23,617 nt of DNA from Chlamydiales bacterium (GCA_047611865.1 JBLFWS010000037.1:1-23617); one strand, 5' to 3'; positions 1,182 to 20,384 are shown, counted from the first letter of the stretch. Notes: a model not told the origin generated them from the sequence alone. Translations and numbers: made by a program.

Positions 1182-2051
1182 ATGCTATTAGTTGATCCTG
1201 AAAGGATTAAGCATAATGAAGACTCCGCAGCAGATGTAAAGATTGAGTATGTTGGGAGACAGCGCTACCCCGTTCTTGTTGTGGATAACTTTTACTTGGA
1301 CCCGGAGTATGTAAGAGGCCTTGCTTTAGATCTCCACTATTCACCCGTTTTGACTTCTTCTTATCCAGGAGAGCAGGCCATCATCAGTTTACCTATGACA
1401 GAACTCTACTCATTTATTTACCGTCATATAGGAAAGCTTTATGGCTTATCGAAAAAAAGTACAATGGCTTTTGGTGATCAGATATTGAGGTTTTCACTAA
1501 TCAGGAAGCATGAAAAACCTAATCATGTGGAAATTGCTCACATAGATCCCACTCTTTTGCAAATACTTATTTATCTTACTCCTTCTGAAAAGTGTTTACC
1601 AGGCACTTTGTTCAAGCGACATAAGGAATATGATATTGATGAGCATGTCTTTGAAGTAGACACAATGAAAGCCGCGTATAAGCTCATAGGTTTATCCATA
1701 GGGGAAAGCGAGCCACAGTGTGTGGTTCAAGAAGCTATTTTGAGGAGAGTTATGAAAATGGGGCTATTTGCCCGTTATTTTAACTTACTTAAAGAAGGCA
1801 GGATGAAGAGTTTTCGAGATATGCAACTACTACTTGATACGGCAAGAGATAATTATCATTTGTGGGAAGCGTATCATTCCGTTGAAATGAAATTCAATCG
1901 TCTTGTGTGTTTCCCGGGATTTCTTTTTCACGCTCCATCTTGGGAGGAAGACGCATGGGATGGAGAAAGGAAGGAAGAATATCGATTAACGCAAAATTGT
2001 GCTGTTACCTGGCCTTTTAAATCAGGAAAGAGAAAGTGGTATTCGATTTAA
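1182..2051 (+). CDS. DUF6445-like 2OG/Fe(II) oxygenase-fold protein, subtype A, triad intact
   Basis: VLVVDNFYLDPEYVR and SYPG; AHIDP (HxD); MKFNRLVCFPGFLFH (distal His); YRLTQN (putative 2OG-binding Arg). RBS TAAGG(T) upstream. Confidence 0.8.
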   Translation: MLLVDPERIKHNEDSAADVKIEYVGRQRYPVLVVDNFYLDPEYVRGLALDLHYSPVLTSSYPGEQAIISLPMTELYSFIYRHIGKLYGLSKKSTMAFGDQILRFSLIRKHEKPNHVEIAHIDPTLLQILIYLTPSEKCLPGTLFKRHKEYDIDEHVFEVDTMKAAYKLIGLSIGESEPQCVVQEAILRRVMKMGLFARYFNLLKEGRMKSFRDMQLLLDTARDNYHLWEAYHSVEMKFNRLVCFPGFLFHAPSWEEDAWDGERKEEYRLTQNCAVTWPFKSGKRKWYSI

Positions 2052-2941
2052 CTAGAATGAGTTTGAACTCTGAAGAGAAGATGGAGATTTCTGTCGAGCA
2101 TATTGGGCGGAAAGGATATCCCATTCTTATTGTGGATAACTTTTATCGTGATCCCGAATACGTCATGCAGGTTGCGATGAGCATCCAGTATTACTATTCT
2201 ATGGGGGACTACCATCTTTTTAAACTGGGAGTTTATGAGCAAAGTCCTATGCTTATGGCTCAAATCGGAGTAGATCAATCTCCCATAAGTGACTTTCTTT
2301 ATAGGCACTGGGCATCGCATTATATCGACTCCTTTGAAAAGCTTCAACTCTCTGAGCACACAACGAGTTTGTTTGGAACAATAAAGACAGCTGATGAAGC
2401 GGAGGGAGTTTACGGATTTCGACCGCGTGATATAGGGGTACTTCTTTATGGCGTAATGTTTCTATCTCTTTTTGAGAAGGAGTCAGAGGGAATTGGCTTT
2501 TACCGAAACAGGGATGTGGATATTGAAGAAATTATCAGTTTACCACTTTTGGCTTCTCTTGAAGAAAAGTATCCTCAACAGGATCCTGAGATAATCAAAA
2601 GAGTTTGTGAGATGGGGATTTATGACCGTTTTCGTGAGCTGCAAGATGAGGGAAAGGTGGAAGATTACCTGGACCTCCTGGCTTGGGTTTATGAGGTACC
2701 GCCATCTGAATTAATGGACAAAATGATAGAGAAAGATCGGATGAGTGATAGATGGGAGCAGTACAGCTTTGTCGAGAAGAAATTTAATCGCCTGGTGGCT
2801 TTTCCAGGGTTTCTTTTGCATTCAATGGAGGTGAATTGTGAGTTAGGGGCAAAGGAGTCTGAGTTTGAGAATTTGCATCAATTTTTTATGTATCCGTGGA
2901 CTCCTGTTGTTGTGAATGGCAGGAGAGTGCCCTTGCAATAA
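2036..2941 (+). CDS. DUF6445-like oxygenase-fold protein, subtype B, HxD lost
   Basis: ILIVDNFYRDPEYV and KFNRLVAFPGFLLH. PRDIG sits where paralogues have PHVDP. The GTG start overlaps the upstream gene by 16 nt and aligns with the start of the 12886 paralogue. Confidence 0.8.
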   Translation: MVFDLTRMSLNSEEKMEISVEHIGRKGYPILIVDNFYRDPEYVMQVAMSIQYYYSMGDYHLFKLGVYEQSPMLMAQIGVDQSPISDFLYRHWASHYIDSFEKLQLSEHTTSLFGTIKTADEAEGVYGFRPRDIGVLLYGVMFLSLFEKESEGIGFYRNRDVDIEEIISLPLLASLEEKYPQQDPEIIKRVCEMGIYDRFRELQDEGKVEDYLDLLAWVYEVPPSELMDKMIEKDRMSDRWEQYSFVEKKFNRLVAFPGFLLHSMEVNCELGAKESEFENLHQFFMYPWTPVVVNGRRVPLQ

Positions 2942-2961
2942 AAGAGGATAGGAATTTTATT

Positions 2962-4185
2962 ATGCTTGGAAAGTTAATGTCATTGGAAGAGGAGGAGGTA
3001 TTTTTTCAAGATCATTTTGAAAAGAGCCCCATGATTCTTAACCGGGAGAATTCAGATAATTTTTCAGAGATTCTCTGTAATGATGAGGTAGATAAGATCT
3101 TTTCTTCCTGGGATCTGAAAAATTTGTCTCCAGAAGTGATTGGGAAAGAAGATTTTGATCTTTTCGACGGGGAAACAGATCGGGATTCTTGTTATAAGTT
3201 AAAGTCTACCAGAGGGGGAATTAAAGAACTTTTCAGGCTTTATGGAGATGGATATCCCCTTAAGTTAAACAATATGCAAAAAAATGCTTATCCTATCAGA
3301 GAAGTTTGCAGCATACTTGAAAATGTTTTTTTTAGTTTGGCCCCTCGTGCTGTAGTTTATCTTTTTCCCTGTATCTCTCGCTTCTCTATTAAAAGGGGTG
3401 CAGGGGATATGGATGCGTTTCTTTTTCAAATTTCGGGAAATACTCAGCTTCGAATTTCCAGGAATGAGCAAGGGAAGATGCAGGGAGATAAAGACTCTGA
3501 TTCTCAAGGTCTTATAGAGCAGGATCTAGTATTTTCCAGTGGAGGCCTGGCCTATATTCCCAAGGCTTATTCTATTGATATGCAAGCAGAAGAGCAGTCC
3601 TCGGCAAAAACTCTTTTGATTGAGTTTAGCGGTCTTTCAGTGAAAGATTTTTTATCTAATTTGGTCATGCAGCTGGCAAAGTTACACGAGAATGTAGATT
3701 TTCGTCGTAGCATCCCTCTATCCTGGGTAAAAGCTGGAAAAATGTTGGACGAATCAGATAGAGAGACGCAAGAGGCAAAGAAGATTCTTGGTAATTTACG
3801 GAGTTTTTTAAAAAGACCTGAGAATATTCAGCAGCTGCGTAAGCAGTTAAGTTCCTGGAAGGCAATGAAAGCAAAACCTCTCCTGAAAAGGCAGTTACTA
3901 TCCATCCATTCTCTGAAGCATTTAAGTGTAAACAGTGAAATCCAAATGAGAGCAACGGCCTATGTTTCTATGACGACAGGTCCTGAAGAATTGACGTGGA
4001 AGTTTTGTGGAAGCTCCTCCTCTTTCCCTCTGAATTTTGAAGAGGGCTTGAAGGGATTAATGTCAGGGGCGGAAGTACGCGTAAGGGATATAAAGGGGGA
4101 TATGCTACTGGAAGAAAAGTTTAATATGGCCAAGATGTTGGTAAGCGAGGGATCTTTTGAAATAATTTCCCATGAATTATCTTGA
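2962..4185 (+). CDS. YcfD/NO66-like JmjC (cupin_4) protein lacking metal ligands
   Basis: FFQDHFEKSPMIL N-terminus, DAFLFQISG, GGLAYIP and a winged-helix-like tail (VRVRDI...LVSEG). No HxD and no distal His. Start moved to ATG 2962 (RBS AGGATAGGA; aligns with paralogues). Confidence 0.78.
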   Translation: MLGKLMSLEEEEVFFQDHFEKSPMILNRENSDNFSEILCNDEVDKIFSSWDLKNLSPEVIGKEDFDLFDGETDRDSCYKLKSTRGGIKELFRLYGDGYPLKLNNMQKNAYPIREVCSILENVFFSLAPRAVVYLFPCISRFSIKRGAGDMDAFLFQISGNTQLRISRNEQGKMQGDKDSDSQGLIEQDLVFSSGGLAYIPKAYSIDMQAEEQSSAKTLLIEFSGLSVKDFLSNLVMQLAKLHENVDFRRSIPLSWVKAGKMLDESDRETQEAKKILGNLRSFLKRPENIQQLRKQLSSWKAMKAKPLLKRQLLSIHSLKHLSVNSEIQMRATAYVSMTTGPEELTWKFCGSSSSFPLNFEEGLKGLMSGAEVRVRDIKGDMLLEEKFNMAKMLVSEGSFEIISHELS

Positions 4186-4194
4186 GGAGGTGGA

Positions 4195-5397
4195 ATGTTA
4201 AAAAAGTTGATTGATCCCATAAGTGAAGAAGAGTTTTTTTCTGAATACTGGGAGAAGAAGCCATTGTTCATTCAAAGGCAGGACCCTTCTTATTTTTCAG
4301 GGCTAATGTCTTTTGAGGATTTGGACGAGATATTGACAGGCAGAGAGATCTTAGAAGAGAATTTACGGGTAATAGACACGCCGATTTCAAAGTGTTATGC
4401 GGGCAGTGATTTGAGTTGTAAGCTTGTTTATCATTACTATGGTAACGATAAAACTGTAGTGCTTAAACAAGTTCAAAGTTTGTGGGGTCCGGTTAGAAAA
4501 TTCTGCTACCTGATTAATAAGTCTTTTCGTTTTATAAGTGGGGTTTGTGCTAATGCATATCTTACACAGGCTGAGACTCAAGGTTTTGTGCCACATTATG
4601 ATACCCATGAAGTATTTATTGTGCAGCTAGAGGGATCTAAACTTTGGAAGCTTTACGATACCCTTTTGGATTTCCCCATGCCGAATCAGCCGGTTTACTC
4701 TGAGTTTCCTCAGGGTACTTCATTAGGAAGTCCGACGATGGAAGTAGAAATGTTTCCCGGGGATGTCTTGTATATTCCAGGCGGTCTTGTTCATGAGGCT
4801 AAATGTTTTGAAACAGCTTCTTTGCACCTCACTTTGGGATGGGATACGGTTACTTTTGCTGGTTTGTTGGACAGTCAGGCAAAAGCCTTTTCAGAAAAAT
4901 TCCCGGAACAGCAAGTTTCTATTCCCTTTGCTTCTTATTTTTTAGGAGCTCCAACCGGTGGAGAAAAGGAAAAGCAAGAAGCCCAGAAATGGGTGGAGAG
5001 TCTTGTGGATCAATATTTTGAGCCTTCAAAGTTTTCGATGGCATTGAGAGATATTTCGGGTGACTGGAGGGCAGGGCATGAGGTTTTTTTGGAAGGGCAG
5101 CTTAGGATGGCTGATAGCTTGAGAAAGGGGGAGTTATCTTTGAATAGTTTGATTGCTCCTAGAGATCCTTTTATTCCGTATTCCTGTGAGAAATCGGAGG
5201 AGGGCTTTGTGAATTTGTCTTTTCACGATACAAATCTTCGTGTGTCACAAGCCCAGGAAGAAATTTTTCGTCATATTCTCTCAATAGAAAAATGTAGAGT
5301 TAAGGATCTCCCTGGAGACCTTAGTGACAATGAAAAGTTAGATTTTATTCGTTTGATGGTTATGGAGTGTGTAGTCTCATTGAGTATAACAGAGTGA
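4195..5397 (+). CDS. YcfD/NO66/MINA-like JmjC 2OG oxygenase, triad intact
   Basis: FFSEYWEKKPL, ANAYLT, QGFVPHYDTHEVFIVQLEGSKLW and PGDVLYIPGGLVHEA. RBS GGAGGT. Confidence 0.9.
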   Translation: MLKKLIDPISEEEFFSEYWEKKPLFIQRQDPSYFSGLMSFEDLDEILTGREILEENLRVIDTPISKCYAGSDLSCKLVYHYYGNDKTVVLKQVQSLWGPVRKFCYLINKSFRFISGVCANAYLTQAETQGFVPHYDTHEVFIVQLEGSKLWKLYDTLLDFPMPNQPVYSEFPQGTSLGSPTMEVEMFPGDVLYIPGGLVHEAKCFETASLHLTLGWDTVTFAGLLDSQAKAFSEKFPEQQVSIPFASYFLGAPTGGEKEKQEAQKWVESLVDQYFEPSKFSMALRDISGDWRAGHEVFLEGQLRMADSLRKGELSLNSLIAPRDPFIPYSCEKSEEGFVNLSFHDTNLRVSQAQEEIFRHILSIEKCRVKDLPGDLSDNEKLDFIRLMVMECVVSLSITE

Positions 5398-5412
5398 ACG
5401 GCATAAGGGATT

Positions 5413-6606: not shown

Positions 6607-6685
6607 GAAAATATATAGTGGTTTTTCTTTTATCTTGGCAGAATTCTCTCTTGTGAACAAGAGTTGATTCTTGGAGGTCGAGCTG

Positions 6686-7546
6686 ATGGGACAAGAAATG
6701 AGTTTGAACAAGGAAAGGTTAGAGCTGAATCATCCTTCCAGGATGGTTATTCAAATGGATAATTTTGAAGGAAAGAAATTCCCAATTATTGTGGTAGATA
6801 ACTTCTATAAAGATCCCGATTACGTTAGAGAGCTAGCCTTGAGTTTGGATTACCAAGAAAACAGAGGTCATGCTTATCCAGGTGTAGAGGCAACGATTGA
6901 GTTTGATAGCAGAAAATTTTGGGCGTTTATTTATCGATATTTTGCGAGACAATTTGGGTTTACTGCCAAAAGTCTTAAGGTCAATACTGTATCTGAGTTG
7001 AAATTTTCTATGATAGGATCGTCTGGTTCTGAGGGGTACCCCATACAAATTCCTCATGTGGACCCCAATTTGTTGCAGGGTTTAGTTTTTCTCAACCCTC
7101 CTGAGCAATGCAAGGGAGGGACATCTTTTTTTACGAATAAAGAAATGGGATTTGGAGAGGTTGTTGGAGATGTTGAGGTATTGAGCTATACCTTTGGATT
7201 ACTTGGGCATCCAGACTTTGCCGGGTGGCAAAGTTCTTTAGACGGAAGAGTGATAAACAACCTTTTGAAGATGGGCCTTCATACGGAGTTTTTCGAATTG
7301 TCAGATAAAGACAAAACTATAGATTACAACTCTTTAAGGAGAGCTCTCTCTTTGGAGAATTCTTTGTTGACAGATTTCTGGGAAGAAAAGAAGGCTATTG
7401 AGATGAAATACAATCGTCTTGCCTGTTTTCCAGGTTTCTTTATTCATTCGGTATTTTGTGAAAGCGGGTGGTTTGGAGATAAAAAGGAAGAAATGAGACT
7501 GACGCAAAATTTCGGAGTTCCCTGGCCTTACTGTTTGGAGGTATAA
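6686..7546 (+). CDS. DUF6445-like 2OG/Fe(II) oxygenase-fold protein, subtype A, triad intact
   Basis: IIVVDNFYKDPDYVR, AYPG, PHVDP, GGTSF, MKYNRLACFPGFFIH and RLTQN. GGAGG at 6673-6677 supports ATG 6686. Confidence 0.83.
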   Translation: MGQEMSLNKERLELNHPSRMVIQMDNFEGKKFPIIVVDNFYKDPDYVRELALSLDYQENRGHAYPGVEATIEFDSRKFWAFIYRYFARQFGFTAKSLKVNTVSELKFSMIGSSGSEGYPIQIPHVDPNLLQGLVFLNPPEQCKGGTSFFTNKEMGFGEVVGDVEVLSYTFGLLGHPDFAGWQSSLDGRVINNLLKMGLHTEFFELSDKDKTIDYNSLRRALSLENSLLTDFWEEKKAIEMKYNRLACFPGFFIHSVFCESGWFGDKKEEMRLTQNFGVPWPYCLEV

Positions 7547-7547
7547 T

Positions 7548-8981
7548 ATGCATCAGGATTGCCTTCTTGCTATAGATATTCCTGCTTTGCTTACGGAGCT
7601 TAGAGACTTACTTTCGTCGCCTATTGATGGAGCATCTTTAGCTGTTTTCAGGCTATTGTATGGAGCCATTTTTTTTGTTCATTATATCATAGGCTGGGAA
7701 TTTGAAGTTTTACGCTATACCAACACATCGTATAATTTTCATTACGAACTTACTCCATTTATTGTCCCATTAAAAAAAAGAGGCATGAATCTTTTATTGG
7801 GAATTCAGATTTTAGCAGCTTTTTCTTTAGCAATTGGTTTTTTATCTCCTTACTCGGCTTTTATTTTATTTCTGACTAGTGCTTACAAGCTATTGATGGA
7901 TAAATCTTTGTACACCAATCACGCTTATCTTCATGTATTGATATGCTTGCTCTTGAGTGTCGTTGATGCTGGGAAAGTTATGTCGATGGATTCTTATTTA
8001 TGGGGTAGTGGGGAGCAAGGTTTTGAGATTTCTTTTTGGCAGGTGCTGATTTTTAAGTTACAGATTTTGATTGTCTATTTCTATGGAGGGATGAGCAAGC
8101 TAAATTATGATTGGCTGTTTCGGGCGATGCCCCTTCGAAATTTGTTTGCCGACAAGAGCTATTATTTCCTGCAGCGAAATATAGGAAGGTTTATTAAGGG
8201 AGAGAGTTCTCAATATACTGCTCGTGTTTTTTCTTTTTTTATTATTCCTTATTTCGCGGCATGGTCTGGAATGTTTATAGACCTGTTTGTCATCTGGTTC
8301 ATGCTGTTTGAAGAGACCCTTTATTATGCATTAGCGATATATTTGTGTTTTACAGTACTAAATCACAAGTTTTTTGAAATTGGAACTTTTCCCTACATGA
8401 ATTATGCCTTTGTCGTTCTTTTTCTAAGTCAAGTATACTCTCGTAGCGTTGTGGGTCTATTTTTTGGAGATACTCAGGGAGGGTCCGGAGCTGATCTTTT
8501 CATGTCTGATTTTGAATTCTTTTTTTTTATAGTTTATTTAGCCATACAGTTGGTCATACCCATGAGAAGGTTTGTGAAAACCTACATCATTCGCTTGGGA
8601 AAGAGCGATATTCATGCAGATAATGCCTGGTATTTTTCCTGGAATATGATGCATGCAGTAAAGCATGGGAAAGTGAGTTTTGATGTCTACGACTTGTCTA
8701 CAAAGAGATCTTTGTCTTTAGAGGGTGTCAGTCACGAACAGATCGTCTTGGGTACTAAGCAGGAACATTGTCTGAGGACGAGGCCACGCTGTGCTATTCA
8801 ATATGTGAAATTTTTGGAAGGCATTTTGAGAAGGAATGCTTATAAAAATTTTGGCATCAGGGTAAACAGTCAGATTGATATTAACTGTAGCGGAATGAAA
8901 ATGAAGATCAATCCGAGAGCCAATTTATGTAAGGAAGAAGTGAAGGCGTATGGTAGCTATTGGTGGCATTTGGATGATTAA
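7548..8981 (+). CDS. HTTM-domain membrane protein, vitamin K-dependent gamma-carboxylase-like
   Basis: PIDGASLAVFRLLYG, YTNHAYL, QILIVYFYGGMSKLNYDWL, IGTFPY and FSWNMM follow GGCX motifs in order. Several hydrophobic helices are followed by a soluble C-terminal domain. Confidence 0.88.
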   Translation: MHQDCLLAIDIPALLTELRDLLSSPIDGASLAVFRLLYGAIFFVHYIIGWEFEVLRYTNTSYNFHYELTPFIVPLKKRGMNLLLGIQILAAFSLAIGFLSPYSAFILFLTSAYKLLMDKSLYTNHAYLHVLICLLLSVVDAGKVMSMDSYLWGSGEQGFEISFWQVLIFKLQILIVYFYGGMSKLNYDWLFRAMPLRNLFADKSYYFLQRNIGRFIKGESSQYTARVFSFFIIPYFAAWSGMFIDLFVIWFMLFEETLYYALAIYLCFTVLNHKFFEIGTFPYMNYAFVVLFLSQVYSRSVVGLFFGDTQGGSGADLFMSDFEFFFFIVYLAIQLVIPMRRFVKTYIIRLGKSDIHADNAWYFSWNMMHAVKHGKVSFDVYDLSTKRSLSLEGVSHEQIVLGTKQEHCLRTRPRCAIQYVKFLEGILRRNAYKNFGIRVNSQIDINCSGMKMKINPRANLCKEEVKAYGSYWWHLDD

Positions 8982-9002
8982 GTGATTTACAGAACTTCTC
9001 TC

Positions 9003-9043
9003 GGCCTTGTTGCATGGTCCGTGAAGACCCATGCAACAAGGCC
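9003..9043. mobile_element. 41-bp miniature inverted-repeat element with IS903-like ends; possible terminator between convergent genes
   Basis: Perfect 15-bp inverted repeat GGCCTTGTTGCATGG (9003-9017) / CCATGCAACAAGGCC (9029-9043), flanked by the 8-bp direct repeat CTTCTCTC (8995-9002 and 9044-9051). Confidence 0.75.
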
Positions 9044-10617: not shown

Positions 10618-11307
10618 GTGATGGACGACTGGCGAAAATTGAATTCCATGGAGTTCTATGAGAAATATGGATTTGTGTTTGTTGAGGACGCTATTCCCGA
10701 GAATTTGGCCGTACAATGTACTCTTTATTCCTTAGTAAAGTCTCGACAGGAATTTTCTCCTGATCTCTTAACGGATCCAAAGGTTCACGGAGTGTATGCA
10801 GATACCTTGATGGAATCTCTTTTACACTTTTACGGCTCTTGGGTGAGTAATGTTGTCGGGAAAAAATTGTGGCCCAGCTATTCTTTTTATCGCGTTTTTG
10901 TCCCCGGGATTAAAGAGGAAAGGATAAGAGCTGATGTCTCAAATGAGTATCGTGCTTCTCTCTGTTTAGGTACGAGTGCCAAGTCAAAGGAGGGAGACAG
11001 CAGCTGGGACATTTATCTTGATGTGCCCGATGAGGATGGAAAAGAAGGAAGGCCCTTAAGACTTTCTCCTGGGAACATGGTGATTTATTCTCCTCTGAGA
11101 GTAGACCATTGGCGGGAAGCCTTAGAAGGAGAAAAGGGGTCCAAGTATGTTCAGGTGGATTTGAATTATGTAGATGCGGACGGGCCTTATTTCCCGCTAT
11201 GTAAGTTTGATGGGCGACAACGTCTTGGCGAGCCTCAAGCGAGTATCAGACCGGAGAAGATGGATGCCATATCAAGGCTAACGTTGATGGCTCACGGGAA
11301 GCAGTAA
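10618..11307 (+). CDS. Phage-type 2OG/Fe(II) oxygenase-fold protein lacking HxD
   Basis: LWPSYSFYRVF, SLCLG, WDIY, LSPGNMVIY, DHWRE, QVDLNYVDADGP and KFDGR..LG. ERIRADVSNE occupies the expected H.DR..CE site. Start is GTG 10618 or ATG 10621. Confidence 0.7.
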   Translation: MMDDWRKLNSMEFYEKYGFVFVEDAIPENLAVQCTLYSLVKSRQEFSPDLLTDPKVHGVYADTLMESLLHFYGSWVSNVVGKKLWPSYSFYRVFVPGIKEERIRADVSNEYRASLCLGTSAKSKEGDSSWDIYLDVPDEDGKEGRPLRLSPGNMVIYSPLRVDHWREALEGEKGSKYVQVDLNYVDADGPYFPLCKFDGRQRLGEPQASIRPEKMDAISRLTLMAHGKQ

Positions 11308-11330: not shown

Positions 11331-12902
11331 ATGTCGACAAAGGCGCAAAGTAGTGTACAGTATTTCAAAGAAAATCATTTTGTTTCTATCAGTGGTGTGA
11401 TACCTGCGGCCTTGACAGATATTTATGGGACCTATGCCACCCTCAAGGCGATGAATTTTTTTTCTCCGGATACTACAGTGGGTACAGGGACTCATGGGGT
11501 TTATGGAGATACTCTGATGGAAACTTTGTTGACGAGCTATAAAGAGACTGTGGAGAGGGAGATAGGTCTGCCCCTTTGTCCCAGCTATTCCTATTATCGT
11601 GTTTATGGCTCAGGATCTGAAATTACCAGGCGTAGGCTCGGTCCATCTAATGAGATTACAGCACTGCTTTGTTTGGGTCATGAATATAAGGTCGGAGTGG
11701 AGACTTCTTTTTCCTGGAAATTATTTTTAAGTGAAAAGAGAGAGGGTGGGGAGAAGGTAGAGGCCGTAAGAGTGAAGCCTGGTAATATGATTATTTTCCG
11801 TGGAAATTTGTTGGATCATTGGAGAGAGCCTTTTCCTATTTCTGAGGGAGGTTGGTTTGCTGAGGTTTTTCTGAATTACGTTGTGGATGATGGGGCTTAT
11901 AAAAACATTTGTAAATTTGATGGGAGAAAGTCCCTTTTTTCTCTTCCCGTAAATTTCGAATTGGAAAAAGTACAAGCTATTGAGAATCTGTCTCAGGAAG
12001 AAGCTAGCGAGAGCTCTCCTTCTTCGGGCGTTGTGAAAGAGTATATGGAGAAATGGGCTAAGATAAAACCGTTGGCTCCCCCTTTGGATATGGATAGGCT
12101 AGGGTTTAATGCGGATGATGACATCACTTTTACTTTGATCTCTTCCGGGGCTAGTAAATTCCCCATACTCCTTGCAGACAATGTGTATAAAGATCCCGAT
12201 TACGTCAGAGATCTGGGACTGGAGATGTCTTATGATCGAGGGAGGGCATCGATTAGTTTGCCTATGGGCGAGTTATGGGAGCTTTTGTGTCGTTCATTCG
12301 CACATCTTTACGGCTTTTCTGATGAGCTACTGAAGGCCTCTGCTTTTCCCTTTTTCCGCTATGCTTTGGAAAGATCTCCTGTAGAAAAACCCTTGTCGTC
12401 TTCGCCCTTTCTTGAGGGATTTACCTTTCTCAATTTACCTGATGACTGCAAGGGAGGACTGTCCTTTTATCGTCACAAGGAATTTGATATAGAGGAATTT
12501 ATTTATGATGCAAACATAGTAGACGTAATTTTTCAACTTAAAGAGAACAAGCTGAGAGGAGCTAAGACGACTGACCTGGATCAGCGTTTCATTAAGAAGC
12601 TTATCTCTATGGGCTTGTTTTCTCAGTATTTTACTTTGCTCGAAGAGGGGACAGTTGATAGTTATGTCCAGTTAGGAGAAAGAGCTATGGGAGAGAAATC
12701 TCAAAAAGATTGGGAAGTGGTGACGTCGATTGAAATGAAATATAATCGTCTTGTGTGTTTTCCGGGTTTTCTCATGCACTCTTTGGATAATCCTGGAGGA
12801 TGGGATAGTAAAGACAAGGAAGAACAGAGGTTGAGGCAAAGGTTTTTTGTATCATGGCCAGTGAACATGGGGGAGAAGGGAAAGGATGATTTTAGATATT
12901 GA
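11331..12902 (+). CDS. Fusion of a phage-type 2OG-oxygenase-fold domain and a DUF6445-like (subtype A) domain, both lacking HxD
   Basis: The N-half is paralogous to 10618 (HGVYGDTLMETLL, PSYSYYRVY, DHWRE, CKFDGR). An S/E-rich linker follows. The C-half has ADNVYKDPDYVR and MKYNRLVCFPGFLMH. GGAGG precedes ATG 11331; GTG 11316 is an alternative start. Confidence 0.78.
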   Translation: MSTKAQSSVQYFKENHFVSISGVIPAALTDIYGTYATLKAMNFFSPDTTVGTGTHGVYGDTLMETLLTSYKETVEREIGLPLCPSYSYYRVYGSGSEITRRRLGPSNEITALLCLGHEYKVGVETSFSWKLFLSEKREGGEKVEAVRVKPGNMIIFRGNLLDHWREPFPISEGGWFAEVFLNYVVDDGAYKNICKFDGRKSLFSLPVNFELEKVQAIENLSQEEASESSPSSGVVKEYMEKWAKIKPLAPPLDMDRLGFNADDDITFTLISSGASKFPILLADNVYKDPDYVRDLGLEMSYDRGRASISLPMGELWELLCRSFAHLYGFSDELLKASAFPFFRYALERSPVEKPLSSSPFLEGFTFLNLPDDCKGGLSFYRHKEFDIEEFIYDANIVDVIFQLKENKLRGAKTTDLDQRFIKKLISMGLFSQYFTLLEEGTVDSYVQLGERAMGEKSQKDWEVVTSIEMKYNRLVCFPGFLMHSLDNPGGWDSKDKEEQRLRQRFFVSWPVNMGEKGKDDFRY

Positions 12903-13773
12903 TCGCCTCCAAGTGAATGCTGAATCCGAGATGGATGTTAGCGTGATAAAGGTCGGATCCTGTTCCTATCCTGTTGTTGTGATGGACAATGTTTATTCGG
13001 ATCCGGATTACATACGGGAGCTGGCATTATTTCTTGAATATGACAGGAGATTTTCTGATACAACGAGCCGTAGCCTTGGTGTTTACCCAAAAGGACTTAA
13101 GGAGATTGCCAGAATAGGATTGGACCAGCGTCATTTTTTTGAGGTACTGCATAAAAACTGGGCGAATCACTATATTCCTGATCGAGAAAAATTCATTTCT
13201 CATATTCCCAGAGAGGTCATTTTCTCACGTCTGAATCCTTCAGAAGGATCCTTTGATAAGTCTTTTGCTAAACCTCGATATGGGCGAACAATGTTTTCGG
13301 GAGTACTCTATCTAAACACAGATGAGCAATGTCGAGGAGGGCTGGGATTTTATTTGCACAGGAGGACAGGCTTTGATGAATTCCTTGATCTTTCTCTTAT
13401 GGAAGCAGTCGAAAGTAAAACATCTTTGTACGATAAGAGTGTATTGGGGGCTATTTATGATATGTCTTCTTTTGATAAAGTAGAGTACTTACGGGATGTG
13501 GGTAAGCTGGAATATTATTCGAAATCTCTTAAAATTATACATAATGAACCTATCGTACGGAAAGCTTATACAAGTGGAAGTGATGAGACCTGGCTTTTGT
13601 TTGATTTTGTAGAAATGAAATTCAACCGCCTGGTTTTCTTTCCATCATTTGTATTTCATGCCCAACACTACCAAGACAATTGGTTTGGTAATTTTCCGGA
13701 GACCCAGTGTTTGACACAGGAGTTTGCATACCATTGGATACCTACAGCTAACGAAAGTCATTCACTAGGATAA
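12886..13773 (+). CDS. DUF6445-like oxygenase-fold protein, subtype B, HxD lost
   Basis: VVVMDNVYSDPDYIR; LGVY, RIGLDQ and NWANHYI shared with the 2036 gene; PRYGR at the HxD site; MKFNRLVFFPSFVFH. Confidence 0.8.
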   Translation: MILDIDRLQVNAESEMDVSVIKVGSCSYPVVVMDNVYSDPDYIRELALFLEYDRRFSDTTSRSLGVYPKGLKEIARIGLDQRHFFEVLHKNWANHYIPDREKFISHIPREVIFSRLNPSEGSFDKSFAKPRYGRTMFSGVLYLNTDEQCRGGLGFYLHRRTGFDEFLDLSLMEAVESKTSLYDKSVLGAIYDMSSFDKVEYLRDVGKLEYYSKSLKIIHNEPIVRKAYTSGSDETWLLFDFVEMKFNRLVFFPSFVFHAQHYQDNWFGNFPETQCLTQEFAYHWIPTANESHSLG

Positions 13774-14832: not shown

Positions 14833-14850
14833 TTTATTCCTGTTAAATTG

Positions 14851-14965
14851 GGGTGCAACCATAAGTGGAGGTGAGTCTTTTTTTTGTTACTCTTGTGAAT
14901 AGACGAAGCCTTCGGACTCATGAATAGTAACAAAAAAAGACTTACCTCCACTTATGGTTGCACCC
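14851..14965. mobile_element. 115-bp MITE with long terminal inverted repeats and a 9-bp target-site duplication
   Basis: GGGTGCAACCATAAGTGGAGGTGAGTC(T8)GTTACT pairs with AGTAAC(A7)GACTTACCTCCACTTATGGTTGCACCC, with one mismatch and one indel. GTTAAATTG lies at both 14842-14850 and 14966-14974. Confidence 0.88.
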
Positions 14966-15011
14966 GTTAAATTGTTTTAAATTGCGATGTAACGTCCTCA
15001 AATCATAGGAT

Positions 15012-16079: not shown

Positions 16080-16275
16080 TCACCCTCAAAAAGCATGGGA
16101 TTGATGAGCACACACTGCTCTTTCTAAATGTGTTTAGTTTTTTTTCAACCGATGTTTACTAAAGCGAGTAAATCCTATGCATCTTTAACAAGTGAGATAG
16201 GAGTTTTTTCAAAATCATTTGGTAATAATCTTTACTTAGTTATCGTATGGATTAAAGAAATATGTAAAGGATTCT

Positions 16276-17415
16276 ATGCTTGAAAAGTTTATGAGTTCTG
16301 ATTCGGAAGATACTTTTTTTCAAGAACATTGGGAAAGGTCTCCAATGATTATATTTGGTGAGGACGCGGGGTATTTTCAGGACATACTCACTGATTCAGA
16401 CATCGATTATATCTTATCCTCCTTTATCAGTCTGAAGTTGAAGATTCATGTTTGGGAGGGAGAGAGTTTTGTGCCATCTTTTAGGGTAGATGGGCAAGCG
16501 TACCTGGGTACAAAAGAAGCATATAAAAAGTATGGGGAAGGGAGAGCCGTAGAAATTAGAAATCTCAAAGAATGCTGGCAGCCCGTCAGGGAGAGCTGCA
16601 GTATTTTGGAAAGGGGTATGCGCAGTATCAATACGGAAGGAAGTGCTGTGTTGATTCCATCAGGAGGGCAAGCTTTTTCCAAGATAGAGAAGAGGTCTCA
16701 CACATTTTTTATTCCGATTTTAGGGGAACTTTTTTTAAGGATTTTTTCTTGTCAAGATATTGAAGGAGGCCTTGAAAAGGCCGTTTACAAGGAATTTTCC
16801 TGTAAAGCGGGGGATTTTATTTATATCCCTCCTGGGTATCGCTATGAAGTTAATGAGGCTTTGGATCCGGCACTTCTCCTTCTCCTGTCTTTTGAACAGT
16901 ATACCTGGAAAAGTCTTATCGAAAATGTCCTAGGAAAAGTAGAGGAGAACGAGGGGATTTTGAATAGGCGCATCCCCATGAAATATTTGAAGGGGGGAGC
17001 AGCCAGAGAGTGGAAAGAAGAGGAAGAAGTTTTTTGCTCATTGACGGATTCTTTTCTTGTGAGGGCTGTGCGGGATAACTTGTCCTTGGGGCAGATTGTG
17101 TCCAGTCAGTCTCTTGACAAGAGGCGTTTGGAGGTCGTAAACAGGGTGGAGGAGATCACTTTGGACAGCCTCTTGAAAATGAGAAAAGAATGTTCTTTTT
17201 TCCTTTATACAGATGAAAGAGATTTACAGTGGCTTGTTACAGCTGGACAAACTAAGTGCCTTGTGGAAAGCGAGGAAAGGGAAGCTTTGGATTTTGTTCA
17301 AAGAGCTGGGGAATACAGAGTTAAAGATATTCCGGGTTTTGCAGCGACTCGCCAATGTCTGGATTTCGCAAGGTTTTTACTTTCGCTCGGAGTGGCGGAA
17401 ATGGGGGTAGAGTAA
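16276..17415 (+). CDS. YcfD/NO66-like JmjC protein lacking metal ligands
   Basis: FFQEHWERSPM, GDFIYIPPGYRYEV (no His), FSKIEKRS at the HxD site and a YRVKDIPG tail. Its N-terminus most resembles the 2962 gene. Confidence 0.8.
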   Translation: MLEKFMSSDSEDTFFQEHWERSPMIIFGEDAGYFQDILTDSDIDYILSSFISLKLKIHVWEGESFVPSFRVDGQAYLGTKEAYKKYGEGRAVEIRNLKECWQPVRESCSILERGMRSINTEGSAVLIPSGGQAFSKIEKRSHTFFIPILGELFLRIFSCQDIEGGLEKAVYKEFSCKAGDFIYIPPGYRYEVNEALDPALLLLLSFEQYTWKSLIENVLGKVEENEGILNRRIPMKYLKGGAAREWKEEEEVFCSLTDSFLVRAVRDNLSLGQIVSSQSLDKRRLEVVNRVEEITLDSLLKMRKECSFFLYTDERDLQWLVTAGQTKCLVESEEREALDFVQRAGEYRVKDIPGFAATRQCLDFARFLLSLGVAEMGVE

Positions 17416-18623
17416 TGTCCATGCTTAGTCGCCTTATTCATCCAATGGAGGAAGAAGAATTTTATTCCGTTTACTGGGAGAAAAAGCCTTTTGTCATCCA
17501 TCGGAAGAAAGCGGACTTTTACCAGGATTTACTGACTTTTAACGGCATGGATGAGTTGCTGAGAGACAGGCTTCCGGAGGAAGGGAACAAATTTAGGCTT
17601 ATTTCAGGAGATGAAAATCAAGAGCAGAATCTAGAAAAAGGCTATTCAGGAAGGGTAAATAAAGCGGGCACTGTAAACGATAAGCTTTGTGCTTATGGCT
17701 TGGGAGCTTCAATTATTCTGAACTCTGCGGATGTGTTTTCGGGAGGAGCTTTAGGGAAGTTCTGTCGGCAGTTGGAGGAGGATTTGAAATGCTGTAAGGT
17801 CTTTACCAATGTGTATATGACGCCTGCTAATGCTCAGGGTTTGGAGACTCATGCGGACTTTACAGATGTCTTTGTTTTACAGCTTGGCGGAAAAAAGGTC
17901 TGGAAAATTTACTCATCTATAGAAGAGTCTTTGAATTCGGAGGAGCATGAACATTTCATCAGCAATCCTGGAGAAGTGACGATGGAGTTTGTTCTTGAGG
18001 AAGGCGATGTTCTTTATATTCCCAGAGGGTATGTTCATTCCGCAAGTACAAGGAGTAGCTCTTCTCTTCACGCGACAATGGGGATTATTCGTTTTAGCTG
18101 GGAAGATTTTTTAAAAAGGGTAAAGGATCTTCTTTCCAAAAGAAATTCTATCCTGGCGACACCTGTACCACTCTTTCCTTTTATCGTCGATGCTCCTACC
18201 GACATGCATGACTCTTCTTTAGAAGAAACAGAGAAGCAGTATCGGAGTGCTGTGGAGTCTTTGTTTGACTTGTCAAATTTGAGTCAAGGTTTGGAAGATT
18301 ATCTATTCTGGTTTAAGGGGAGTAGAGAGCCCTCTCTTGAGGGACAGAAAGCTGTGATGGATGGATTGAATAGGCTCTCTCTCGATTCTGATGTCTGTGT
18401 GAGAGATGGTTTTCAATATAATTTTTCCGCTTTAGACGGAGAGTACGTTTTATGGTTTCATGATAAGCATATTTTCCTGTCAGCAGAAGAGTTTGAGGCC
18501 TTCCGTTATCTTGTATCGAGTGAGAGGTGTAAAGTCGGGGAAATTTCCCGTGTTCTCACAGCTGAAAAGAAGTTGGACTTAGTCAAAGATCTTTGTAAGG
18601 AGTGTATTTTACGGCATGTTTAG
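17415..18623 (+). CDS. YcfD/NO66/MINA-like JmjC 2OG oxygenase, triad intact
   Basis: FYSVYWEKKPF, NVYMTP, QGLETHADFTDVFVLQLGGKKVW and GDVLYIPRGYVHSA. TAATG stop/start overlap at 17413-17417; ATG 17421 is an alternative start. Confidence 0.9.
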   Translation: MSMLSRLIHPMEEEEFYSVYWEKKPFVIHRKKADFYQDLLTFNGMDELLRDRLPEEGNKFRLISGDENQEQNLEKGYSGRVNKAGTVNDKLCAYGLGASIILNSADVFSGGALGKFCRQLEEDLKCCKVFTNVYMTPANAQGLETHADFTDVFVLQLGGKKVWKIYSSIEESLNSEEHEHFISNPGEVTMEFVLEEGDVLYIPRGYVHSASTRSSSSLHATMGIIRFSWEDFLKRVKDLLSKRNSILATPVPLFPFIVDAPTDMHDSSLEETEKQYRSAVESLFDLSNLSQGLEDYLFWFKGSREPSLEGQKAVMDGLNRLSLDSDVCVRDGFQYNFSALDGEYVLWFHDKHIFLSAEEFEAFRYLVSSERCKVGEISRVLTAEKKLDLVKDLCKECILRHV

Positions 18624-19494
18624 AAAGCTTTTACAGAAGACAAAGGAAAAATGTTTTATCAGCAGCTTTCAAAAGCAGCTTCCTCTGTTGTTTCAAGATC
18701 ATGAACCTGATGGGTTTTCCTGGCTTATGAGTCAGGAAGATATGAGCCAGATATTTGAAAAGAAAGGATCCCGATATTACAAGATTTTTGTGCCATGTCA
18801 GGGGGCGTTTCGAAGCTTTAATGGTGAGGTGGAAGAGGCTTTGAGAAAGTATGAGGAGGCTTTTCCTGTCTGGATCCGAAATTTGAAAGACAGCCACGCC
18901 CAACTAAGGGAGTTGTGTTTCTCCTTGGATAGAGTGACTTTGTGCAAGGAGAGCTTTGCTTCTCTTGCCTGGATCCCGGAGCAGGCTGAGGAATTTACCT
19001 TTTCTTTGGGTTTATGGGATGCCTTTTACTTGAATATGGAAGGGGAGGTTCAGCTAGAGGTGAGTGTTCCAAAGGATGGGGAAAGTTTTAAGGTTCGAGA
19101 CATTGATCCAGGAGGAAAAGGCTGGGAAAAGGTGAAGGAAATTTCTTTGAGTAAAGGGGAGATGATTTACATCCCTCGCAATAATAGCGTCACCGTAAAG
19201 CCAGCCAAGAATGAAGCCGCTAAAATTATTGTCTTGGGCTTTCTTAGTTACACTTGGGGTGATGTGATTGACAAGGTTTTGTACGTGAAGTCACCTTCGA
19301 AAAAAGAATTGAAGGACTCTGTGCCTACAGAATGGCTGAAGTCTTCACAAATTGTGTCGTCACAGGAAAATGAAGCCGTTATAGAAAAGTTCCACAGGAT
19401 TTTTACCGGACAGCTAAGCTATTCTTTGGCGAAGGCAATCATTCGTAAAGAGATAGCCATAAAGCGTGGAGTTTCCGGAAAAGGGAATAGCTGA
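18616..19494 (+). CDS. Short, highly degenerate JmjC/cupin_4-like protein
   Basis: FISSFQKQLPL, IRNLK, DAFYLNMEG, GEMIYIPRN and SYTW. No metal ligands and no C-terminal winged-helix-like tail. Overlaps the upstream gene by 8 nt. Confidence 0.7.
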   Translation: MFRKLLQKTKEKCFISSFQKQLPLLFQDHEPDGFSWLMSQEDMSQIFEKKGSRYYKIFVPCQGAFRSFNGEVEEALRKYEEAFPVWIRNLKDSHAQLRELCFSLDRVTLCKESFASLAWIPEQAEEFTFSLGLWDAFYLNMEGEVQLEVSVPKDGESFKVRDIDPGGKGWEKVKEISLSKGEMIYIPRNNSVTVKPAKNEAAKIIVLGFLSYTWGDVIDKVLYVKSPSKKELKDSVPTEWLKSSQIVSSQENEAVIEKFHRIFTGQLSYSLAKAIIRKEIAIKRGVSGKGNS

Positions 19495-19508
19495 TACGAG
19501 GAAGGACT

Positions 19509-20384
19509 ATGCTGAATCAATGGATTGATCCTATAGAAGAGGAGGAGTTTTTTAGCCGATATTGGGGAGCCGAAGCTCTTTTGATAAAAGGAGATGGAAA
19601 AGCAAATTTTGCGAATATTTTGTCTGGAAAGGACTTGGAAGAAAAGCTTTCAAGTGGAGCTATTCCTCCTCATTTTATCTATGTGGAAGGAATGGGGGAA
19701 CTTGCAAGAGAGCGCGAGAAGGCTTTTAATGCCAATGAAGAGAATGATGATATTGCTCTTGCCAAGCAGTTAATGAGTTTTTCCAGGTCTTACGAACAAG
19801 GGCTATCTTTGAGATTTCTTGAAGCAGAGGTGTACTGTCCTCTTATAGAGGTATATAAGGCGGGGCTCAGGGAGAAGATTCCATGTAGGGAGATCCTTTC
19901 TTCTCTTATTATAAGTCCTCTACGGGGGCGAGGGATTACGGGGAAGAGCAGAGATAAGGATTTTTTTCTGCTTCAGCTTGAAGGTTCAACAACTTGGGAT
20001 GTACAGGGGAAAATCCAAGGAAAATATAGCTTGGAACCAGGAGATTTCCTCTACCTTCCGGCAGGCTTTTCTTATAGAACTAAAGGGATGGAGGAGAGGT
20101 CTTCGTATATTTGTTTTTCATTGACTCCTTATACTTGGCTTGACTTGATGAAGGAATCGTTGGCGGATTTTTCAGCAGATCCAAAAAAAACTTCGGCCTT
20201 GCCATTTTCTCAGGCATTTACAAGGACCCCCATCGGGGGCAATGAATTGGATGAGGAGACCTTTGATAAAGTTTATAAAGAGAAGATATCCTCTCTTCTG
20301 GAAGATTCGATGCTTGAAAAAGCTTTGTCTAGTCTTTCTCAAGGGGATAGGAGTTATTCTACAAATAAGGATAGGATACAGTGA
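19509..20384 (+). CDS. Short degenerate JmjC/cupin_4-like protein
   Basis: WIDPIEEEEFFSRYW, DFFLLQLEGSTTW, LEPGDFLYLPAGFSY (no His) and YTWLDL. RBS GAGGAAGGA. Confidence 0.78.
   Translation: MLNQWIDPIEEEEFFSRYWGAEALLIKGDGKANFANILSGKDLEEKLSSGAIPPHFIYVEGMGELAREREKAFNANEENDDIALAKQLMSFSRSYEQGLSLRFLEAEVYCPLIEVYKAGLREKIPCREILSSLIISPLRGRGITGKSRDKDFFLLQLEGSTTWDVQGKIQGKYSLEPGDFLYLPAGFSYRTKGMEERSSYICFSLTPYTWLDLMKESLADFSADPKKTSALPFSQAFTRTPIGGNELDEETFDKVYKEKISSLLEDSMLEKALSSLSQGDRSYSTNKDRIQ

Follow-up and report, generated by a model that had tools for sequence, protein, structure and literature searches.

Why would a bacterium keep an island of oxygenase-type genes in which most of the encoded domains lack the residues of the metal site? 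This question is raised by a stretch of DNA of 23,617 nucleotides from a Chlamydiales bacterium, here called the window. A preliminary description had counted nine of thirteen oxygenase-fold domains, across three families, as lacking the metal ligands and had read this as repeated loss under selection for non-catalytic roles rather than as pseudogenisation.

Results

We identified 13 oxygenase-type domains in 12 open reading frames of the window. They belong to three unrelated sequence families, namely six ROX-type JmjC proteins (J1 to J6), five DUF6445 domains (D1 to D5) and two domains of an unnamed P4H-like family (T1 and T2). Pfam gave no cross-hits between the families, and hhalign of DUF6445 versus T returned a probability of 0.3%. 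Their genes lie on the plus strand, in the four operons D1-D2-J1-J2, D3-HTTM, T1-T2D4-D5 and J3-J4-J5-J6-SDR. Two genes provide context. One is coupled to D3 and encodes a non-oxygenase membrane protein with an HTTM (7548..8981; Pfam E 3.5e-47) and a VKGC lumenal domain (VKGC_lumenal_dom, E 5.4e-17). The other is the last gene of the J3-J6 operon and encodes an SDR sugar-nucleotide epimerase/dehydratase-like protein (20381..21334; Pfam Epimerase, E 2e-47), for which every NCBIfam match was under the equivalog cut-off.

When aligned column by column to outside relatives (118 JmjC, 90 DUF6445 and 35 T-family sequences), only D1, D3, J2 and J4 kept the His-x-Asp...His triad together with the 2-oxoglutarate anchor; the other nine of the 13 domains (D2, D4, D5, T1, T2, J1, J3, J5 and J6) had lost this combination. 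The count of nine in three families is thus borne out, as is the assignment of full triads to the genes starting at 1182 (HID), 4195 (HYD), 6686 (HVD) and 17415 (HAD) only. A literal string check likewise found no H-x-D anywhere within the nine domains reported to be without it. The broader wording that metal ligands were lost holds for the His-x-Asp part in all nine, but not for the distal His of the D and T families, which each of their five ligand-less domains still carries.

The DUF6445 proteins comprise D1 (1182..2051), D2 (2036..2941, overlapping D1 by 16 nt), D3 (6686..7546, stopping 1 nt before the HTTM/VKGC-like gene), D5 (12886..13773, overlapping the fusion gene by 17 nt) and D4, the C-terminal half of the T2-D4 fusion. 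All five exceeded the DUF6445 (PF20043) gathering cut-off of 24 bits, with 62.7 bits for D1 (E 6.2e-17), 43.7 for D2 (E 4.1e-11), 59.8 for D3 (E 4.7e-16), 24.6 for D4 within the fusion and 49.4 for D5 (E 7.5e-13). The family-typical H-x-D...H and R-x-T are present in D1 (HID...H) and D3 (HVD...H) and absent from D2, D4 and D5. At the His/Asp/distal His/Arg/Thr columns, D1 and D3 have H,D,H,R,T; the residues are R,I,H,N,H in D2, R,G,H,C,T in D5 and L,S,H,R,R in D4. D1 retains 26 of the 28 family-conserved columns, and its nearest outside relative, P0013, is 53% identical and intact. Ligand-less members are common in DUF6445, because 22 of the 90 outside rows that align at every one of the five columns have residues other than H,D,H. 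The distal His is kept in 20 of these 22 rows and the Arg in 18; among the 68 rows with H,D,H, the Arg column holds Arg in 67 and Lys in one. For this family, a PDB profile search gave P4H-alpha as the sole match (E 0.7). The AF2 model of D2 (pLDDT 82.9, pTM 0.86) matched mostly Fe/2OG oxygenases in the PDB, weakly, with a best E of 2.1e-3 and none reaching 1e-3; ABH2 had a probability of 0.96.

The T family is represented by T1 (10618..11307) and the N-terminal half of the T2-D4 fusion (11331..12902). A Pfam search with T1 gave no family, and 2OG-FeII_Oxy_2 was detected in just 3 of 10 T-family members, with E values of 0.056 or worse. Homology was established by phmmer (eight outside proteins, E 2e-26 to 4e-11) and tblastn (26 loci, E 3e-26 to 2e-9), and the Atlas model of T1 had a TM score of 0.81 to a cluster carrying PF13640. 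The motif H-x-D-R...H-W-R is present in all 35 outside relatives; in T1 (I,A) and T2 (R,L) its His and Asp are replaced, leaving the distal His alone. Using the AF2 model of the whole fusion (pLDDT 83.0, pTM 0.62) as Foldseek query, the top matches were Tpa1 and OGFOD1 (E 1.5e-9 to 2e-9) and the Pseudomonas P4H (E 5e-9; TM by target 0.65-0.69, a match to the whole fusion that is not assigned to one half). The latter structures, PDB 4iw3 and 4j25 of the Pseudomonas putida prolyl 4-hydroxylase acting on EF-Tu, were the best single-domain match, over ~200 columns at 13-15% sequence identity. Outside T-family members share the HxD...H order with this enzyme, whereas the His and Asp are missing from T1 and T2. 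Two outside proteins, P0019 (44% identical) and P0026 (36%), are full-length relatives of the fusion and are ligand-less in both halves; P0019 has His, Cys and Cys at the three T-site columns, which could bind metal.

Among the ROX-type JmjC proteins, J2 (4195..5397; HYD...H, Lys; Pfam JmjC_2 E 8.4e-25) and J4 (17415..18623; HAD...H, Lys; E 5e-29) are intact and hydroxylase-like. J2 matched NO66 in a PDB sequence search (E 8.4e-29) and is 45% identical to its nearest outside relative, P0161. The ligand-less members are J1 (2962..4185), J3 (16276..17415, its stop overlapping the J4 start by 1 nt), J5 (18616..19494, with an 8-nt overlap with J4) and J6 (19509..20384, with a 4-nt overlap with the SDR gene). 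Relative to the JmjC_2 cut-off of 22 bits, J2 (87.2), J4 (100.9) and J6 (26.3) scored above and J1 (19.6), J5 (14.7) and J3 (11.4) under. Using hhalign against a profile built from 20 active JmjC sequences, we obtained 99.6% over 381 columns for J1, 99.7% over 365 columns for J3, 98.6% over 234 columns for J5 and 99.5% for J6. J1 to J4 aligned over their full length, through the dimerisation domain and the winged helix, giving J1 the full three-domain length; the alignments of the short J5 and J6 stop inside the dimerisation region, and both lack the winged helix. The His/Asp/Lys/His columns hold G,G,T,I in J1, I,K,L,Y in J3, S,G,V,V in J5 and K,R,T,Y in J6, compared to H,D,K,H in 118 of the 118 outside relatives listed, among which we found no ligand-less protein. 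As none of the four residues is retained, J1, J3, J5 and J6 are relatives of the family and not members as enzymes. They keep just 15 to 26 of 62 conserved columns (J5 20, J6 26) and lie on long branches (3.2 for J5 and 3.46 for J6 versus a median of 0.82); by-domain identity showed no special conservation of the dimerisation domain in J1 and J3. Because of the few conserved columns and the long branches, relaxed constraint is possible for these four proteins, most of all for J5 and J6.

Open frames, starts and codon usage all bear on whether the ligand-less genes are decaying. Every frame is open, and the chance of zero stops in 290 codons of window sequence is ~4e-7. In agreement with the uninterrupted ORFs and the ribosome-binding sites or coupled starts described earlier, all genes have a purine-rich site 5' of the start or a start overlapping the preceding gene. 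The in-frame codon-usage score per codon was 0.15-0.24 for ligand-less genes versus 0.13-0.22 for reference genes, and was negative in all shifted frames. J5 and J6 scored 0.22-0.24; they are compact, and the spaces between genes held no remnant of a lost C-terminus. By these sequence measures, the nine ligand-less domains are encoded by intact genes and not by decaying pseudogenes, so that the rejection of pseudogenisation stands for all nine at the level of gene integrity.

We then considered the age and number of the losses. D2 and D5 form a clade with P0014, P0022 and P0023 (support 100/98), in which all proteins are ligand-less and the three outside ones are full length; the sister of D5 is P0014, which is 49% identical. 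The T2-D4 fusion groups with P0019 and P0026 (support 96/85), and a single clade (support 100/98) unites the four ligand-less T domains. The identities of the ligand-less pairs D5-P0014 (49%) and T2D4-P0019 (44%) lie within the range of intact pairs (53% and 45%, as given above for D1 and J2, and 42% for D3-P0015). Proteins of the ligand-less DUF6445 clades retain 13 to 22 of the 28 family-conserved columns; the pocket columns changed together, with His120, Asp122 and Thr142 altered jointly while core columns were retained. The full-length, ligand-less outside relatives in well-supported clades show long maintenance after loss in the five D and T domains. For the D and T families, the alignments and trees place the loss far back in time, and the proteins have since been kept for long at full length with their core conserved, although some of the outside relatives could be same-genome paralogues instead of orthologues. 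The nine losses amount to about four or five events and not to nine independent ones. Loss was thus repeated across families, less often than a count of domains implies, and the proposed selection after loss finds its evidence in the five D and T domains, not in the four JmjC proteins.

Fold modelling of D1 with D2 gave a pairing score of 0.76 (0.76, 0.76 and 0.74 in three runs), compared to 0.00 for the best of three controls. Of 157 solved complexes, 116 reach this mark, as do 2 of 215 mismatched pairs; these counts are only rough here because our own alignments were used for the D1:D2 runs. The runs share at least 58% of contacts, with a partner pLDDT of at least 78. The interface involves residues 1-4, 43-54 and 66-72 of D1 and 1-5, 45-56 and 74-80 of D2, which are equivalent positions in both chains. 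The model supports a D1:D2 heterodimer that is not separable from a homodimer interface common to the family, and the pairing test is also passed by close cousins of a true partner. Hence, the suggestion that ligand-less proteins are hetero-oligomer partners gained one in-silico pass, and the predicted interface may simply be that of a DUF6445 homodimer.

Discussion

We infer, with moderate confidence, that the ligand-less proteins are non-catalytic subunits that partner site-intact paralogues. The families would be dimeric, and after duplication a dead copy would retain the dimer interface and join a live copy. The candidate pairs, D1:D2, J1:J2 and J3:J4, are each encoded by adjacent, translationally coupled genes. 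Each pair would make up a hydroxylase that combines one active site with one remodelled pocket; the pocket may hold the substrate, select it or activate the partner. No live site is encoded in the T1-T2D4-D5 operon, which would provide a purely binding or scaffolding module, and the T-D fusion suggests contact between T and D domains. The substrates would most likely be protein or peptide side chains.

To our knowledge, the known ribosomal oxygenases NO66 (RIOX1), MINA53 (RIOX2) and YcfD/RoxA are homo-oligomers of active subunits. J2 and J4 resemble them in the layout of JmjC, dimerisation and winged-helix domains as judged by alignment, in HxD...H and in the Lys; unlike in those systems, the whole site is gone from four of the six paralogues in the window, and two have no winged helix. 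ROX enzymes are reported to depend on the dimerisation domain both to oligomerise and to be active (PMC6182338). The T2-D4 fusion is comparable to the eukaryotic uS12 prolyl hydroxylases OGFOD1/Tpa1p/Ofd1. These have a catalytic N-terminal DSBH domain followed by a non-catalytic C-terminal one, and the fusion, like them, has two predicted DSBH domains per chain including one without a metal site. The dead domain of OGFOD1/Tpa1 has been proposed to serve partner or substrate binding or oligomerisation, and the tandem-DSBH subfamily is described as eukaryote-only, with prokaryotic prolyl hydroxylases being single-domain (PMC4396695). In contrast to OGFOD1/Tpa1, both domains of T2-D4 are ligand-less and its halves come from different sequence families, with identities of 9-11%. 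We rejected membership because the N-terminal domain also lacks the His and Asp, and consider the fusion an architectural analogue. Heteromers of a dead paralogue and a live enzyme are exemplified by the 'prozymes' of trypanosomatid AdoMetDC and deoxyhypusine synthase (PMC5201418, PMC3663545). The mechanism is the same as we propose for D1:D2, J1:J2 and J3:J4, but here pairing is only predicted, for D1:D2 alone, and the prozymes have unrelated folds and chemistry and are eukaryotic.

Alternatively, the ligand-less proteins might be neofunctionalised and act alone and not as partners, either by still binding a small molecule (2-oxoglutarate or a different carboxylate, for example) or by carrying out metal-independent chemistry in a remodelled pocket. 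The retained distal His of the D and T domains and of most outside non-HDH DUF6445 rows would fit such a function, as would the Arg of R-x-T kept in D4 and most of the same rows; this Arg is, however, also gone in D2 and D5. The pocket changes are concerted and convergent, with Thr142 replaced by a hydrophobic residue (I, L, M or V) in all eight members of the two ligand-less clades, and the D2/D5 clade has its own shared and conserved insertion, but we identified no new conserved polar constellation. The first His often became Arg or Lys (D2, D5, T2, J6, P0021 and P0036); one transition suffices to turn His into Arg, a change therefore expected from mutation alone. J6 is coupled to the sugar-nucleotide SDR gene. 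Against such a function, the four ligand-less JmjC proteins have lost His, Asp, Lys and His along with most other site columns. Together, we regard a new function of this kind as unlikely.

Some of the nine, above all J5 and J6, might instead be recently disabled duplicates that drift to loss and have open frames only through the short time elapsed. The very long branches of these two proteins, their missing winged-helix domain, their low number of conserved columns and the lack of any ligand-less JmjC among the listed outside relatives are in line with drift. But the long branches also mean that much time has elapsed, and despite this no stop arose in ~290 codons and codon usage remained in frame; moreover, the starts are coupled, intergenic remnants are missing and hhalign still recognises both proteins. 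We therefore consider drift improbable, and it is excluded for the D and T domains because of their conserved ligand-less clades.

That the site was rebuilt from other residues and all nine are still Fe(II)/2OG oxygenases is, judged by alignment, highly improbable. In its favour are the distal His of the D and T domains, the Asp that D2 has directly before the Asp column, and the His, Cys and Cys of P0019. Against it, none of the nine has an H-x-D or H-x-E at the ligand columns or close to them, J6 has one His in all and J3 and J5 have three each, and the 2OG-anchoring Lys is lost in all four ligand-less JmjC proteins and the Arg in D2 and D5. Fe(II)/2OG halogenases (SyrB2, CurA Hal, BesD/HalD types) have H-x-A/G...H and keep both His ligands. 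They resemble the ligand-less domains in missing the carboxylate ligand; in addition, HalD clusters matched T1 at 0.90 in the Atlas and CurA Hal was among the D2 model matches. We rejected this assignment because the first His is also lost in every one of the nine.

Precedents exist both for DSBH domains without catalysis, in OGFOD1/Tpa1, and for dead paralogues as partners, and the island is a variant of these. Returning to the proposal that ligand-less proteins partner live paralogues, we tentatively suggest, as a possibility and not as an expectation, that the locus encodes an obligately heteromeric bacterial protein-hydroxylase machinery. The four live enzymes would have prozyme-like ligand-less DSBH and JmjC proteins as their subunits for specificity or activation, and the all-dead T1/T2-D4/D5 set would be a dedicated reader or chaperone for the (hydroxylated) substrate. 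If true, such a division of labour would have no described precedent among bacterial 2OG oxygenases, and three families of a single locus would have evolved it in parallel.

Thirteen oxygenase-type domains in four operons

The oxygenase-type genes form four operons on the plus strand, with minus-strand genes in between, in a window of ~40% G+C. As the preliminary description had counted, they encode 13 domains in 12 ORFs, which belong to DUF6445 (D1-D5), the ROX-type JmjC proteins of the ribosomal-oxygenase family JmjC_2 (J1-J6) and an unnamed P4H-like family (T1 and T2). The first operon contains D1 (1182-2051), D2 (2036-2941), which overlaps D1 by 16 nt, the JmjC_2 relative J1 (2962-4185) and the JmjC_2 gene J2 (4195-5397), whose product matched NO66 in a PDB sequence search (E 8.4e-29). 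D3 (6686-7546) shares the second operon with an HTTM/VKGC-lumenal membrane protein gene (7548-8981, plus strand). This gene encodes a complete protein of the vitamin-K-dependent-carboxylase-like type, with HTTM (E 3.5e-47) and VKGC lumenal (E 5.4e-17) domains, and starts 1 nt past the D3 stop, which hints that the two proteins act jointly. The third operon consists of T1 (10618-11307), the T2-D4 fusion of a T and a DUF6445 domain (11331-12902) and D5 (12886-13773; 17-nt overlap with the fusion), and has no live site at all. In the fourth, J3 (16276-17415) overlaps the JmjC_2 gene J4 (17415-18623) by 1 nt, J4 overlaps J5 (18616-19494) by 8 nt, and J6 (19509-20384) overlaps by 4 nt the last gene, which encodes an SDR sugar-nucleotide epimerase/dehydratase-like protein (20381-21334). 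Each live J gene is directly preceded by a full-length dead one. All five D domains exceeded the Pfam gathering cut-off for DUF6445, and neither Pfam nor NCBIfam has a model for the T family. DUF6445 and T are separate families at the sequence level; treating them as one was ruled out by an hhalign probability of 0.3%.

The J proteins have a well-supported oxygenase fold; for T this fold is supported, and for DUF6445 it is probable. Neither the D nor the T family had a significant match in PDB sequence and profile searches (best E 0.22 and 0.26), and the profile search found no solved DUF6445 structure. The AF2 model of the fusion (pLDDT 83.0, pTM 0.62, with a low-confidence linker at residues ~200-250) had its best PDB matches in the tandem-DSBH proteins Tpa1 and OGFOD1 (E 1.5e-9 to 2e-9), followed by Pseudomonas P4H (E 5e-9, TM by target 0.65-0.69), with further matches to HygX, SnoK/SnoN, viral collagen P4H and PHD2. 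The T1 Atlas model matched a PF13640-bearing cluster at TM 0.81. The D2 model (pLDDT 82.9, pTM 0.86) matched mostly Fe/2OG oxygenases, weakly, with a best E of 2.1e-3 and none at 1e-3 or better.

Loss of site residues in nine domains

Ligand positions were read column by column from alignments with outside relatives and not by string search. For JmjC, the comparison set comprised 118 outside proteins, namely the 120 listed of 192 profile matches less the window's own two. The His, the Asp, the 2OG-binding Lys and the distal His are present in all 118 and in J2 and J4, and the same columns read G,G,T,I in J1, I,K,L,Y in J3, S,G,V,V in J5 and K,R,T,Y in J6, a protein with a single His in its entire length. 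For DUF6445, an exhaustive profile search gave 1821 proteins at E up to 1e-3, of which we used the best 150; 147 of these are from outside the window, and for 90 of the 147 the alignment covers all five site columns. H,D,H was found in 68 of the 90 (67 with the Arg of R-x-T and 1 with Lys), and the other 22, about a quarter of these fully aligned rows from the best 150 of 1821, deviate from it. D1 and D3 read H,D,H,R,T, and the ligand-less domains read R,I,H,N,H (D2), R,G,H,C,T (D5) and L,S,H,R,R (D4). The T family was compared with 27 ORFs from 26 genome loci and 8 proteins, the genome scan having covered genomes other than the window's own, with a best match of 35% identity. All 35 relatives have the motif H-x-D-R...H-W-R, in which the His and Asp columns read I,A in T1 and R,L in T2.

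Thus the site loss claimed earlier for nine of the thirteen domains was borne out by column-wise alignment and by a literal check, which found no H-x-D string anywhere in the nine. In the five ligand-less D and T domains, the loss concerns the H-x-D part of the triad, and each of them retains the distal His. An alignment artefact was ruled out, since in each of the three families the conserved motifs on either side of the ligand columns aligned without gaps, and a reading as halogenases was rejected on the grounds that all nine domains lack the first His. The commonest replacement of this first His is Arg or Lys (D2, D5, T2, J6 and the outside proteins P0021, P0036, P0094 and P0047), which could be a cation mimic in the pocket or merely reflect the single-transition path from His to Arg.

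Integrity of the ligand-less genes

Judged by their sequences, the genes of the nine ligand-less domains do not look like decaying ones. Scored against a codon-usage table of nine genes from the neighbourhood, they reached 0.15-0.24 per codon in frame, compared with 0.13-0.22 for the reference genes, and shifted frames scored negative in every case. A run of 290 stop-free codons has a chance of ~4e-7 in this sequence. Starts overlap or adjoin the preceding gene, and no gene remnants were found between J5, J6 and the SDR gene. The open frames, the codon usage and the gene spacing agree with the earlier view that these genes are not undergoing pseudogenisation.

Maintenance after loss

A maximum-likelihood tree built from 40 rows of DUF6445 placed D2 and D5 in one clade (support 100/98) with the outside proteins P0014, P0022 and P0023, all ligand-less (triad columns Q,N,H, G,G,S and Q,L,H, respectively). 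D4 grouped (96/85) with the outside fusion proteins P0019 and P0026, also ligand-less, and among intact domains D1 paired with P0013 and D3 with P0015 and P0020. The T halves of P0019 (H,C and a distal C) and P0026 (K,G and a distal R) are without the canonical triad as well, and the four ligand-less T domains form one clade (100/98). Identities of ligand-less pairs (D5-P0014, 49%; T2D4-P0019, 44% over 513 residues) fall in the same range as those of intact pairs (D1-P0013, 53%; D3-P0015, 42%; J2-P0161, 45%).

Across 80 outside H,D,H rows, 28 DUF6445 columns reach a conservation of at least 75%. D1 keeps 26 of these, D3 25, D5 20, D4 19 and D2 16, and the outside ligand-less relatives of the last three keep 13-22. 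The losses in the ligand-less D clades are concerted and comprise His120, Asp122, Thr142 and the Pro-Gly ahead of the first core strand, with the Arg lost in a variable manner; position 142 carries I, L, M or V in place of Thr in 8/8 members of the two clades. The D2/D5 clade has in addition an insertion of its own of ~10-12 residues. The D and T proteins have diverged for long while their frames stayed intact and their core conserved, and their clades have gained new features of their own; this looks like what selection on a non-canonical function would leave, and not like drift. The ligand-less outside relatives may be either orthologues or distant paralogues of the window genes; a word-based homologue search with D2 returned D2 itself and no close orthologue.

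The case for maintenance is weaker for JmjC. No ligand-less relative was present among the 118 outside proteins listed, and of 62 conserved columns J1 keeps 15, J3 18, J5 20 and J6 26, compared with 45 in J2 and 41 in J4. Branch lengths are 1.69 (J1), 1.6 (J3), 3.2 (J5) and 3.46 (J6), with a median of 0.82 and 1.63 for the intact J4. J1, J3 and J5 were grouped (100/99), a placement to which the long-branch warning applies, and J6 was placed near J2 with weak support. All four are still clear homologues (hhalign 98.6-99.7%); the alignments run through the dimerisation and winged-helix regions in J1 and J3 and end inside the dimerisation region in J5 and J6. Comparing the identities of J1-J6 domain by domain gave no decisive sign that the dimerisation domain is conserved. 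Of the selection for non-catalytic roles proposed in the preliminary description, the part that concerns selection after the loss is therefore favoured for the five D and T domains, with their ligand-less clades and conserved core, and less so for JmjC. Loss was repeated across families, but as four or five events and not as nine, with T accounting for one, DUF6445 for two and JmjC for one or two.

Predicted pairing of live and dead copies

We chose D1 and D2 for complex prediction because they were the most open case, with no DUF6445 structure solved. The D1:D2 prediction scored 0.76 (runs 0.76, 0.76 and 0.74) vs 0.00 for the best of 3 controls; the score mark is reached by 116/157 solved complexes and 2/215 mismatched pairs, a rough guide here, where our own alignments were used. 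The runs had at least 58% of contacts in common, with a partner pLDDT of at least 78. In the predicted, pseudo-symmetric interface, the two chains contribute equivalent residues, which lie at the N-terminus, in the helix that follows the conserved DNFY-x-DP-x-YVR motif and in a strand (D1 66-72, D2 74-80). The D2/D5-specific insertion lies directly before this strand. The model supports the view that DUF6445 proteins dimerise and agrees with a D1:D2 heterodimer, so that the hetero-oligomer suggested earlier gained a positive prediction, although a homodimer interface of the family would fit equally.

In ROX enzymes, the dimerisation domain is required for oligomerisation and activity, according to passages of PMC6182338. 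With this need and the order of dead and live genes, J1 would pair with J2, and J3 with J4. The existence of the T-D fusion suggests contact between the two kinds of domain.

Gene context

Intact T genes elsewhere adjoin peptide-modification genes, which points to peptide or protein substrates. Examples are L001 (beside a PqqD-like gene, a nucleotidyltransferase and a MauE/thioredoxin gene), L009 (an MvdD-type ATP-grasp, another 2OG oxygenase and HlyD) and L004 and L017 (large proteases). At L024 (9754-11407), two tandem T copies are both site-intact. At L016 (5622-9394 of an actinomycete MAG contig), a JmjC_2 gene lies immediately before an intact T gene, and an SDR gene is close by; the set echoes the T, JmjC and SDR combination of the window. 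When all 20 window proteins were compared by tblastn with the 26 T-family loci, only T matches were found except at L016 (JmjC and SDR too); hence, the neighbourhoods of T relatives do not conserve the island as a unit. DUF6445 occurs in other multi-domain settings, as seen in P0086 (3397 aa, five DUF6445-matching stretches) and P0062 (477 aa, an unrelated N-terminal part followed by an intact DUF6445 domain).

The island may adjoin a mobile element, since the left edge of the window carries a DDE transposase fragment (2-157, minus strand; Pfam DDE_Tnp_1_5, E 3.7e-10) next to a 58-nt inverted repeat (131-327; arms 131-188 and 270-327, 76% complementary). Among the minus-strand genes, 5413-6711 encodes a 432-aa protein without Pfam family, which Atlas places with APH/kinase-fold clusters (score 0.97; TM by row 0.72-0.77). 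Its kinase catalytic H-x-D position reads H-L-N by eye, and it may be a further dead enzyme of the island. The 473-aa protein encoded at 9051-10472 weakly matches the catalytic-loop region of STE20-like protein kinases (E 0.083), with a loop reading H-T-D-M-N-M-A-N; BLASTP gave no support for the two being paralogues. Two tandem DUF4915/TIGR03032 paralogues lie at 13765-16079 (minus strand; E 1e-111 and 1e-127), over which the GC skew is ~0, compared with +0.1 to +0.3 in the remaining window, other minus-strand genes included. The 691-aa ORF at 21396-23471 (minus strand) has no Pfam or NCBIfam family and no PDB sequence match, and no tRNA or Rfam family was found in the window.

Relation to known systems

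Non-catalytic DSBH domains and dead-paralogue partners are already known, mainly as single cases from eukaryotes. OGFOD1, Tpa1p and Ofd1 have a metal-free second DSBH domain, for which passages of PMC4396695 suggest a role in binding or oligomerisation; the same passages describe this subfamily as eukaryotic and prokaryotic prolyl hydroxylases as single-domain. In trypanosomatid AdoMetDC and DHS, dead paralogues activate live ones, according to parts of PMC5201418 and PMC3663545. A literature search returned nothing on DUF6445, on DUF4915 or TIGR03032, or combining pseudoenzyme, 2-oxoglutarate and JmjC. What is new is the scale and parallelism, with nine of thirteen domains ligand-less in three families at one bacterial locus. 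Also new are the joint encoding of live and dead neighbours and a fusion with both domains dead, whereas only one DSBH domain is metal-free in OGFOD1, Tpa1p and Ofd1.

Overall, three unrelated oxygenase families have come to the same outcome at one bacterial locus, with live and dead copies side by side, and for two of the three there is evidence of long retention of the dead copies. If the pairing is real, the island would be a compact system for studying how pseudo-oxygenases shape substrate choice or activity, and would provide a first functional handle on DUF6445.
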